NCBI RefSeq assembly: GCF_013167455.1
Contig: NZ_CP038328.1
Length of the DNA: 64,000 nt
Direction: 5' to 3' (one strand)
DNA from: Escherichia coli O157:H7
GTDB taxonomy: Bacteria; Pseudomonadota; Gammaproteobacteria; Enterobacterales; Enterobacteriaceae
Shown here: positions 7,289 to 9,985 of the stretch, in pieces
Numbering within the stretch: position 1 is the first letter of the stretch
Layout: each line of letters opens with the position of its first letter
Program-made: the position numbers and the translations under genes
The notes under the pieces: model-generated
Databases searched by the model: none
Told to the model about the DNA's origin: nothing
What the model saw: the letters and a program-made list of their open reading frames with translations, nothing else

Positions 7289-7927
7289 ATGCCCGGGCGC
7301 TTTGAACTAAAACCAACCCTGGAGAAAGTCTGGCACGCACCGGACAATTTTCGCTTCATGGACCCGCTGCCGCCGATGCATCGTCGGGGGATCATTATTG
7401 CCGCCATTGTATTGGTGGTCGGATTTCTGCTTCCATCTGATGATACGCCCAACGCGCCGGTGGTGACGCGTGAAGCGCAGTTAGATATTCAGTCGCAATC
7501 ACAACCGCCGACAGAAGAACAGCTGCGGGCGCAATTAGTCACCCCACAAAATTATCCTGATCAGGTGGCTCCGGTCGCTCCAGAACCTATACAGGAAGGC
7601 CAGCCAGAAGAACAGCCGAAAACTACCCAAACGCAACCATTCCAGCCAGATAGCGGAATTGATAATCAATGGCGCTCTTACCGTGTCGAACCCGGTAAAA
7701 CGATGGCGCAGCTGTTCCGCGACCACGGACTGCCCGCTACCGATGTCTATGCAATGGCGCAGGTAGAAGGCGCGGGTAAGCCGCTGAGTAATTTGCAAAA
7801 CGGGCAGATGGTGAAAATCCGCCAGAACGCCAGCGGCGTGGTGACGGGCTTAACCATTGATACGGGGAATAATCAACAGGTCCTGTTCACCCGCCAGCCG
7901 GATGGCAGTTTTATTCGTGCGCGGTAG
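7289..7927 (+). CDS. ytfB: OapA/LysM-domain cell-division-associated membrane protein (212 aa)
   Basis: ORF 7253..7927; start at MPGRFELK; single TM segment plus Pro/Gln-rich linker. Confidence 0.8.
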
Positions 7928-8004
7928 ATGAAGGGTCAACCAAAAGCCAGCTAAGGATTGTCTCTTTGATGACCTTACGTCTGGCTTCCAGTGCCTGGGG
8001 TGAA
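7911..8004 (-). pseudogene. ytfA: 3' fragment of ytfA separated from its 5' part by the IS insertion
   Basis: Minus-strand frame just beyond the inferred IS right end stays open for 30 codons ([30 protein letters not shown]) and is in frame with the ytfA 5' fragment once the IS is removed. Confidence 0.4.
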
Positions 8005-8200
8005 ACCATACTGATGTGTTGACATCCTCCAAGCCCTGAAGGACGTGGATCCCTGCTACGTTCAGGCTGTCGCCTGAATCATTTCGGTGGGTTCCTGCTT
8101 CAACGGGCGGCCTGACTGCACCATCTCCCCACAGGCAAGAACGGCGTGCCCCGCCGCTAAAATGTTACGAGCGCCATTTACATCAGCGTTCGCTGTATAT
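7985..8200 (-). ncRNA. putative TnpB guide RNA (omega-RNA/reRNA): scaffold from the tnpB 3' end and right-end region plus a roughly 16-20 nt guide from the flank
   Basis: Inferred from IS200/IS605 TnpB biology; right-end hairpin at 8029-8048 and a perfect 7-bp hairpin overlapping the tnpB stop (8061-8078) lie in the expected scaffold; extent is approximate and no RNA evidence exists. Confidence 0.35.
8029..8048 (-). repeat. right-end subterminal imperfect hairpin
   Basis: Top strand ccacgtcc-ttca-gggcttgg; same architecture and core as the left-end hairpin. Confidence 0.55.
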
Positions 8201-9270
8201 CCACATGCCTGGCATCTGAATTTACTTTGTGACAGGCGATTTTCTTTCGCTGTATGACCACAGCACGCGCAACGCTGGCTTGTGTACGCTGGCGGAACAG
8301 CAAGCACCTGACCGCCACGCCAGAGCTGCTTGTACTCAAGCTGGCGGCGCATTTCATACCAGCCCTGATCCAGTATCGAACGGTTTAAACCTGATTTTGC
8401 CCGGACATTGCGCCCCGGCTGGCTGACCGTACCCGCTGCTGACTTTGACATGTTGCTGACCTTCAAATCCTCAATGACTATCATTGCGTGGTTTTTGCTG
8501 ACGGTCGTTGTGACTTTGTGAAGGTAGTCCCTGCAGATATTTGCGATACAGGAATGCAGTCGCTGTATTTTGCGTTTCTGCTTCTGCCAGTTGTTGCTGA
8601 ATTTGACCTTGCGGCTTAACTGTCGCTGAAGTCTCGCCAGCGTCTTCTGGTTTTTCTGAAAACTGTTTACAGGTCCAAAGACTGTGCCATCTGACAGCGT
8701 GGCGAGTTTAGCCACGCCAGCATCCAGTCCGACCATTAATGCTGAAGGGTGAACCGGAGTTGATACTTCATTTTCAGTCTGAATACTGATGTACCACTTA
8801 CCGCAGGACTGGCTGGCAGTGACATTTTTCACAACACCCGTGACCTGACGGCTATTCCGGTAGCGCATCCAGCCAAGTTTCGGCAGAAAAATACGGCTGT
8901 TTTCCTGATCGAGCTTAACGCCCTGCGGGTAGCGGAATGCATCATTCTGTCCCCGCTTTTTGAATCGGGGAAAAGCAGCCCGCTTCCGGAAGAAGTTTTT
9001 GTAAGCCCGCTCAAGGTCTTTCAGTGACTGTTGCAATGGCTGTGACGGGGCATCTTTAAGCCATTGCGTTTCAGTGGCATTTTTCCACTCAACCAGCCAG
9101 GAAGCCATTTTCCCGTAAGGGATGTATTTATTACCGGCCTCATGATTCTCATTCTGAAGCGCCAGAGCACGATTGAAAACGAAACGACATGCGCCTGCGA
9201 AGCGCCTCATTTCACGCTCCTGTTGACCACCGGGTCTTAACTGGAATTTAAATGCCTGTAGTCGTTTCAC
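8062..9270 (-). CDS. tnpB: TnpB (OrfB) of IS200/IS605 family: RuvC-like nuclease with C-terminal zinc finger (402 aa, GTG start)
   Basis: N-terminus [12 protein letters not shown]; RuvC-I GLDAG (Asp183), RuvC-II IVIEDL (Glu267), zinc finger CACCGH...CQACGY, Ruv[13 protein letters not shown] (Asp363). Confidence 0.9.
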
Positions 9271-9277
9271 AGGCCAA

Positions 9278-9709
9278 ATGATACTTTGGTCTGTGAAAAA
9301 AGAAACCGATATCCGGCGTGGAAGGCATTGTGTTTTCCTGATGCATGTTCACCTGGTCTTTGTCACCAGATACCGACGCCAGATTTTTGACCATGACGCG
9401 ACAGAAAAACTACGCACTTACTTTTCAAAGGTATGTGCTGATTTTGAAGCTGAACTGGTTGAAATGGATGGCGAACCAGATCACGTCCATTTGTTAATTA
9501 ACTATCCTCCCAAACTGGCGATATCCAGTCTGGTAAACAGCCTCAAAGGCGTATCGGGTAGGTTACTGCGACGAGATCGACCAGATATTGCAGTCAGGTA
9601 TTACTACAAAGGCGTTTTGTGGAGTCCTGGCTATTTTGCCAGTAGCTGCGGAGGTGCGCCAATATCCGCCATCCGTCAATACATTGAACAACAGCAAACA
9701 CCTGGTTAG
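9278..9709 (+). CDS. tnpA: TnpA, IS200/IS605-family HuH Y1 transposase (143 aa)
   Basis: HuH motif DHVHLL; catalytic-Tyr region [26 protein letters not shown]; start codon 7 bp from the divergent tnpB start. Confidence 0.85.
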
Positions 9710-9730
9710 GTGGAAAACCGCGCCGTATAT

Positions 9731-9750
9731 CCCCGCCCTGAAGGACGGGG
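9731..9750 (-). repeat. left-end subterminal imperfect hairpin
   Basis: Top strand ccccgtcc-ttca-gggcgggg: 8-bp stem with one T.G position and a 4-nt loop, 19 nt inside the inferred left end. Confidence 0.55.
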
Positions 9751-9769
9751 TTTTACGGCGCACCGGATA

Positions 9770-9985
9770 AACCAGGCCAAGCGTATGCTGGTTGATCAAA
9801 TAATATCCCCCAAGCGCAGCAATATTAATATTCACCTGCAATGGGTCGATATCTGGCTTAAAAATATTGTATTTCTTCCCTTCATCCAATAAGGATTCCA
9901 TTAACTGCAAGTGCGCATGGTTGATTTCTAAGAGACGCTGTGATTTTGCATAATGCACACCTTTACTTTGATTTTCACTATGCAC
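9770..9985 (-). pseudogene. ytfA: 5' fragment of ytfA (small alpha-helical ORF, possibly a TetR-like C-terminal remnant) interrupted by the IS
   Basis: ORF 9563..9985 begins [27 protein letters not shown] and reads into the IS left end after about 72 codons. Confidence 0.5.

Follow-up and report, generated by a model that had tools for sequence, protein, structure and literature searches.

The IS200/IS605 element IS608 of Helicobacter pylori is the mechanistic paradigm for 'peel and paste' transposition by the transposase TnpA, and the pairing of its target TTAC with the tetranucleotide AAAG was reportedly worked out by Barabas in 2008 and Guynet in 2009. Here we describe the copy of insertion sequence (IS) 609 that interrupts ytfA in Escherichia coli O157:H7 (assembly GCF_013167455.1, contig NZ_CP038328.1), as found in a stretch of 64,000 nucleotides (nt), hereafter the window. 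We regard it as highly probable that window 8019..9766 is a complete IS609 copy which sits scarlessly 3' of TTTAT inside the ytfA pseudogene, a C-terminal remnant of a TetR/AcrR regulator lacking the helix-turn-helix (HTH) domain, and which works by the family mechanism. For the second protein of such elements, TnpB, the elements of Geobacillus stearothermophilus (ISGst) and ISDra2 provide the reference: their TnpB proteins are nucleases that act with a guide RNA (ωRNA) and, according to Meers et al. 2023 (bioRxiv 10.1101/2023.03.14.532601), cleave the donor joint. The target-adjacent motif (TAM) of ISGst2 TnpB2 was shown experimentally to be TTTAT, and the shared TAM, the donor joint and homing-like retention were likewise shown experimentally for Geobacillus elements in that study, which also restates the principle of the left-end DNA guide.

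The IS609 copy in ytfA and its ends

Many E. coli O157:H7 chromosomes, those of Sakai and EDL933 among them, match the 1.9-kb stretch that carries the element at 100% identity. The RefSeq annotation of O157:H7 calls tnpA 'IS200/IS605-like element IS609 family transposase' and tnpB 'RNA-guided endonuclease InsQ/TnpB', and the curated repeat_region 'IS609 Family: IS200/IS605' of Sakai falls on window 8019..9766 (1748 bp, 100% identity). The components of the element are as follows.

8019..9766, minus strand: the 1748-bp IS609 of the IS200/IS605 family, which on the tnpB-sense strand runs from its left end (9766) to its right end (8019), as placed by comparison of occupied and empty sites, the Sakai annotation and eight independent sites
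9278..9709, plus strand: tnpA, Y1 HUH transposase of 143 amino acids (aa), intact, with H69, H71 and Y135
8062..9270, minus strand: tnpB/insQ, predicted RNA-guided endonuclease of 402 aa with GTG start, intact, with RuvC residues D183, E267 and D363 and a zinc finger with CxxC at 334 and 353
9720..9761, minus strand: left-end subterminal hairpin, core CCCCGTCC-TTCA-GGGCGGGG at 9731..9750, extended by GCGCCGTA/TACGGCGC
8028..8049, minus strand: right-end subterminal hairpin TCCACGTCC-TTCA-GGGCTTGGA, with a copy-specific mismatch at 8032
8019..8022, minus strand: TCAA, right-end tip and cleavage site; about 70 relatives finish in a near-invariant GGAGGATGTCAA, beyond which the sequences are unrelated

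The ends of the element were determined from genuine empty sites. At the K-12 and MRY15-117 loci these read, on the plus strand, ...GGTGAAACCATACTGATGTG followed directly by ATAAACCAGGCC..., and the empty sites of both strains and of five metagenome or isolate contigs share the form ...GGTTTAT followed by CA(C/T)ATCAG.... On the minus (tnpB-sense) strand the O157 insertion reads ...CTTGGCCTGGTTTAT, then the element from CCGGTGCGCCGTAAAACCCCGTCCTTCAGGGCGGGG to CCACGTCCTTCAGGGCTTGGAGGATGTCAA, then CACATCAGTATGGTTTCACC.... Comparing occupied and empty sites base by base revealed no duplicated target bases, and together with the comparison of multiple copies this confirmed an earlier note on the window, which had described an IS200/IS605 element inserted without target duplication into a minus-strand open reading frame (ORF). 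The tnpA and tnpB of the element are divergently oriented. Both pieces of that frame, one ending in ...QHTLGLV and one with its stop at 7911, are indeed present, and the downstream piece overlaps the 3' end of ytfB by 17 nt (7911..7927) as the note had stated. The true positional ambiguity of the ends amounts to 1 nt, a G, and was settled by comparison with other IS609 copies. The alternative placement that this G allows (8018..9765) was rejected: the base 3' of TCAA varies among sites, while the C in TTAT followed by C is constant (TTAT followed by CCGG). The remaining IS609 copies start with CCGGTG and finish with GTCAA, matching the ends of 8019..9766 exactly.

Compared with the genuine empty sites, the boundaries of the earlier note (approximately 8007..9772) lie 12 nt too far out at the low end (8007..8018) and 6 nt too far out at the high end (9767..9772), flanking bases that had been counted as part of the element. 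When the note's reconstructed empty site was used as a query, a contiguous match was obtained in 3272 genomes, and the matched stretch was 18 nt longer than the query throughout; because 18 nt equal six codons, the incorrect junction nevertheless stayed in frame. The GTT at both junctions, from which a 3-nt ambiguity had been deduced, belongs to AAACCA, a 6-nt sequence repeated by chance, whose two copies at 8003 and 9769 both lie in flanking DNA and not at the junctions. Continuity of the reading frame had been offered as support for the boundary. Of 3721 boundary pairs within ±30 nt, 1217 also gave an uninterrupted frame, close to the one third expected from frame alone, and continuity is therefore uninformative on boundary position; the general lesson is that an open frame across a putative insertion tells nothing of its end points. 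Joining at the GTT codons does yield an open frame of 102 aa. The correctly restored O157 ORF comprises 108 aa and differs from the K-12 ORF by 1 residue. By exact-sequence lookup, the 108-aa protein of K-12 is UniProt YTFA_ECOLI, 'Putative uncharacterized protein YtfA / PUTATIVE PSEUDOGENE', and the corrected O157-type protein is present verbatim on empty-site contigs, whereas the 102-aa version had no exact match in a collection of 15 billion proteins in which the 108-aa versions were matched. The annotated YtfA, with which the note had proposed a comparison, is thus matched by the 108-aa form at all but 1 residue.

Both proteins and both ends bear the marks of the family. TnpA matched NCBIfam transpos_IS200 over its full length with 145.7 bits (cutoff 55), and its H69/H71 and Y135 align with the HUH motif and catalytic tyrosine of IS608 TnpA (2a6m, 71.6 bits), which makes it a Y1 HUH transposase. 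TnpB matched NCBIfam guided_TnpB with 378.8 bits (cutoff 100); residues 3-376 align to ISDra2 TnpB (8h1j/8exa), and the RuvC residues D183, E267 and D363 as well as both CxxC pairs of the zinc finger are conserved. Terminal inverted repeats are absent, imperfect subterminal hairpins lie at both ends on one strand, the core GTCCTTCAGGGC is found at both ends in the same orientation, and the insertion occurred without target-site duplication 3' of a conserved motif of 4-5 nt. Folded as DNA, the left-end hairpin reached -18.6 kcal/mol (z = -3.86, 0 of 200 shuffles as good) and is kept in relatives. The right-end hairpin of the O157 copy taken alone did not fold significantly as DNA (z = -0.66); it is backed by relatives, with compensatory changes in 7 of 9 pairs (helix 8 of a 50-sequence alignment). 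At window position 8032 (minus strand) the O157 copy carries T for G, reading GGGCTTGG versus GGGCGTGG in E. coli copies elsewhere, and it is the sole mismatch at this hairpin pair among the 50 sequences (columns 242/255).

Target motif, putative guides and putative ωRNA scaffold

Four further segments inside or beside the element bear on how IS609 would find its target and how TnpB would be guided.

9767..9771, minus strand: target motif/TAM TTTAT (core TTAT), flanking DNA directly 5' of the left end and outside the element
9751..9754, minus strand: AAAA, the tetranucleotide that precedes the foot of the left-end hairpin on its 5' side, putative DNA guide specifying TTAT, from the covariation tally and the IS608 rule
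8019..8203, minus strand: putative ωRNA scaffold, comprising the tnpB 3' end and the right end; 5' limit provisional
8003..8018, minus strand: right-end flank CACATCAGTATGGTTT, putative natural 16-nt guide and homing target beside TTTAT in the empty site, from the junction comparison; single match in the window

To define the target motif we compared full-length copies in eight independent contexts, namely ytfA, DUF3251/nrdR, yedK, yeaR-yeaQ, K-12 ydcL-ydcO, gltX-yfeD, yidH and a Klebsiella plasmid. TTAT lies directly 5' of the left end at all eight sites, with T at position -5 in six and C in two. All eight copies end in GGATGTCAA, their 3' flanks are unrelated and no duplication is seen. The earlier note had expected the TAM next to the left end on its 5' side, and, read on the tnpB-sense strand, this is where the motif lies; the note's suggestion that other copies be checked for a conserved motif is borne out in so far as such a motif exists. 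The motif itself is TTTAT and not the run ending ...GGCCTGGTT that had been named; TTTAT was missed because the left end lies 6 nt further in, so that those bases had been counted as element.

The analysis was extended to relatives by scanning one genome per species, which provided 80 loci with TnpB identities of 58-94%, their ends being located by profile searches. Among these the flank motif covaries with the tetranucleotide that precedes the foot of the left-end hairpin: AAAA with TTAT in 16 copies, AAAG with TTAC in 13, and CAAA with T(T)GAT in 4. Spacing is constant at 16 nt, and no cross-combination among the three classes occurs in copies with an intact hairpin; one relative (L016) with a degraded hairpin combines an AAAA guide with a TTTAC flank. 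Four scored copies fall outside the three classes, all of them flanked by TTTAT: L013 and L015 (both ATAT), L033 (AAAC) and L094, whose hairpin was mis-called. Such co-switching of guide and flank is the behaviour that would be expected under the IS608 'DNA guide' rule, and motif recognition by the TnpB protein must have switched together with the left-end guide within the clade. That guide tetranucleotide and flank motif change together within one TnpB clade may be of use to those mining for TnpB nucleases.

For the putative ωRNA, the last 230 nt up to the right-end tip were aligned for 50 copies. The structure obtained with RNAalifold has 32 pairs, of which 17 show double changes. After addition of one obvious hairpin (38 pairs), 93.2% of alignment cells were paired as compared with 35-48% in slid controls, 23 pairs had changed on both sides, and 0 of 500 shuffles scored as high on any measure. 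The covariation score was 0.359 versus at most 0.10 in slid controls, indicating a structured RNA at the tnpB 3' end and right end that abuts the flank. Several of its helices lie within the tnpB coding region, and the covariation is consistent with an ωRNA scaffold rather than a TnpA hairpin only. A scan of 7600..10200 against Rfam at a permissive threshold gave no family above threshold. Two archaeal families, HgcC (E = 0.88, 16.6 bits) and sot0042 (E = 0.9, 14.6 bits), matched below threshold on the terminal hairpins and were set aside, as membership is not established by such scores. These matches cover 8006..8125 and 9730..9834 (minus strand), i.e. the right-end and left-end hairpins, and the two families may merely have the IS200/IS605 end motif CCCCGYCCTTCAGGGCGGGG in common.

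The TnpB mechanism suggests that the right-end flank acts as guide. The earlier note had proposed this concept, which we retain; the putative guide would begin with CACATCAGTATGG (8018 downward) and not with TCACCCCAGG.

Following the family mechanism, as described experimentally for Geobacillus elements with a TTTAT TAM, TnpA would excise and insert the minus-strand copy as single-stranded DNA by 'peel and paste', leaving the donor resealed scarlessly. It would locate TTAT by means of the AAAA 5' of the left-end hairpin and would recognize TCAA at the right-end tip. A tnpB transcript reading past the right end would give rise to an ωRNA with the guide CACAUCAGUAUGGUUU, and the restored joint, TTTAT followed by CACATCAGTATGGTTT, would be cut by TnpB-ωRNA and repaired from the element-bearing sister chromosome, so that the copy would be retained.

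Several points weigh against this scheme. The mismatch at 8032 could weaken right-end recognition by TnpA or folding of the ωRNA despite intact tnpA and tnpB. The pairing rule of guide and target is not absolute, given that L013 and L015 have ATAT and yet are flanked by TTTAT. The TAM of TnpB is deduced from the target of the transposase. Finally, TnpB of H. pylori IS608 showed no activity on its native donor joint in the assays of Meers et al. 2023 (bioRxiv 10.1101/2023.03.14.532601), and activity should therefore not be assumed from sequence. No report of the target, TAM or activity of IS609 was found in the literature searched, where its TnpB is mentioned solely among the nine purified candidates of a 2026 screen. 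The exact ends, the target motif TTTAT (core TTAT) and the putative natural guide CACATCAGTATGGTTT of the O157 copy are now corrected, which is of little importance beyond annotation. An IS609 copy in a known pseudogene is real but ordinary, its biology being already known and the copy already annotated in Sakai; judged by sequence, it would work just as predicted by the published IS200/IS605-TnpB model.

The ytfA remnant and the history of the insertion

IS609 separates two pieces of a gene that is itself a remnant.

9767..10061, minus strand: upstream TetR/AcrR remnant piece; annotated YtfA GTG start at 9985, homology to the intact gene until about 10061 (blastn against the 215-aa gene of locus L005)
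7911..8018, minus strand: downstream ytfA remnant piece (...AHE*), overlapping the ytfB stop by 17 nt

The assignment of ytfA to TetR is based on DNA homology to intact alleles and on precomputed Pfam matches. An intact TetR/AcrR gene adjoining a 3-ketoacyl-ACP reductase is present in strains MRY15-117 and 'ExPEC' (215 and 212 aa, respectively). The remnant DNA is about 98% identical to its C-terminal part, and O157 homology to the intact gene ends near window 10061, so that approximately residues 83-215 of 215 are kept and the HTH domain is gone. The 108-aa product carries PF17938 (TetR_C_29), the C-terminal ligand-binding domain; TetR_N, the N-terminal HTH, is seen solely at loci with the intact gene (e.g. 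L097) and is not found in ytfA. An NCBIfam scan of the 108-aa YtfA returned no family match. In the RefSeq annotation, ytfA of K-12 is a TetR/AcrR pseudogene described as 'missing N-terminus'. In both K-12 and O157 the yjfZ (DUF2686) region stands in place of the N-terminal third of the TetR/AcrR gene and its 3-ketoacyl-ACP reductase neighbour, with a breakpoint near window 10061 (compare L004, L005 and L097). It is this older replacement by the yjfZ region, and not IS609, that created 'ytfA', and IS609 landed in a gene already dead. Because ytfA was already dead, the insertion was probably neutral for the host. Removal of the element does restore the annotated YtfA remnant, as the earlier note had reasoned; the remnant is no small intact gene and was a pseudogene before the insertion.

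Of 5426 complete E. coli genomes, 1744 share the left junction in ytfA, O26, O111 and enterotoxigenic E. coli strains among them, and the site is empty in 3272. Strain BS-04 (L003, approximately 905..925) has 20 extra bases, CCCCTTTCCCCCTCCCCTGG in ytfA sense, which replace the last T of TTTAT exactly at the insertion point. We rejected this oddity as a scar of excision or cleavage: it is a singleton in the 5426 genomes and its neighbour yjfZ is frameshifted, and an assembly artefact is most likely. The right flank occurs as two alleles of the guide region, CACATCAG...CACCCC and CATATCAG...CCCCCC, each with and without IS609 (L012 and L014 occupied, L098-L100 empty); the empty alleles are scarless on both haplotypes. 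The CATATCAG...CCCCCC allele mismatches the O157 guide at position 3.

Two histories could account for this distribution. Either IS609 entered the same TTTAT several times, by independent insertion or by homing driven by TnpB, or a single ancient insertion was passed on vertically, with recombination and, now and then, a precise loss. In favour of repeated entry, ytfA copies of different lineages are 25-31 nt apart, a distance as great as that between copies at different loci (23-48 nt), and the occurrence of both the CACATCAG and the CATATCAG allele in occupied as well as empty states would also fit repeated entry. We nonetheless consider it unlikely, since the TTAT core alone is far too short for repeated targeting of one chromosomal position, a divergence of about 1.6% is by our own estimate in the range expected for old E. 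coli lineages, and scarless excision by TnpA or allelic recombination accounts for the mixed states as well. One old insertion with later loss or recombination is favoured.

Among ten E. coli copies, tnpA has stops, frameshifts or stop-codon loss in eight, only those in ytfA of O157 and in yeaR-yeaQ retaining the 143-aa tnpA, while tnpB is open in all. Pooled ratios of non-synonymous to synonymous polymorphism (pN/pS) for the E. coli copies were 0.35 for tnpB, as under purifying selection, and 0.88 for tnpA. For those mining TnpB nucleases, E. coli IS609 thus offers copies that lose tnpA and conserve tnpB together with the guide-RNA scaffold. It is very doubtful that these resident, mostly immobile TnpB-ωRNA units serve a purpose other than retention of the transposon, be it guarding their own locus allele from incoming empty alleles via recombination or a host-level function; both the co-switching of guide and flank and the loss of tnpA with conservation of tnpB and scaffold fit published models. 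A relative of the enterobacterial type was also seen on a 2057-bp contig labelled Streptomyces mutabilis (L028; 81% TnpB identity, identical ends, TTTAT flank), which is probably contamination of the Streptomyces assembly.

Likewise very doubtful is that the insertion knocked out a functional small gene, ytfA, with phenotypic consequence in O157:H7. In K-12 and many further strains the 108-aa frame is uninterrupted, with about 99% conservation, and it is split in 1744 genomes. Set against this are the pseudogene calls of RefSeq (missing N-terminus) and UniProt (putative), the content of the ORF, which represents no more than approximately residues 83-215 of a TetR/AcrR protein of 215 aa, without HTH and with the yjfZ region in its place upstream, and the fact that disruption in a third of E. 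coli genomes has no evident cost. The version in which the element spans approximately 8007..9772 with a 3-nt GTT ambiguity, a TAM within ...GGCCTGGTT, a guide starting TCACCCC... and a YtfA of about 102 aa can practically be dismissed: the frame is open when joined at the GTT codons, but one third of arbitrary boundaries join in frame anyway, every genuine empty site holds 18 more bases (TATCACATCAGTATGGTT, ytfA sense), the Sakai annotation is 8019..9766, the CCGGTG start and GTCAA end of further IS609 copies fall exactly at these ends, and public data contain no 102-aa form but do contain the 108-aa protein, as YTFA_ECOLI.

Comparison with described systems

The closest described system is IS609 of E. 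coli itself (its ISfinder name), to which the element belongs; one of its copies is that of K-12 (insP/insQ, between ydcL and ydcO), which is 97.7% identical, also 1748 bp long, and has identical ends and a TTTAT flank. The O157 ytfA copy stands apart from most E. coli IS609 copies, including that of K-12, by its intact tnpA and its unique G-to-T change in the right-end hairpin.

With H. pylori IS608 the element shares a Y1 HUH TnpA, subterminal hairpins, the lack of inverted repeats and the lack of target duplication. As in IS608, the right end finishes in TCAA, 10 nt past the hairpin, and the 4 nt 5' of the left-end hairpin would read the target; the IS608 combination of TTAC and AAAG is itself seen among IS609 relatives. 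Unlike IS608, IS609 has TTAT and not TTAC as target and AAAA and not AAAG as putative guide, with a spacing of 16 nt between cleavage site and hairpin at the left end, and its tnpA is divergent from tnpB (IS605-type) rather than co-directional.

IS609 TnpB aligns to ISDra2 TnpB, and ISDra2 uses TTGAT, which is also the flank of some IS609 relatives with a CAAA guide. With ISGst and ISDra2, IS609 would have a common logic, in which one TAM is shared by TnpA and TnpB, the right flank serves as guide, and the donor joint consists of TAM plus flank.

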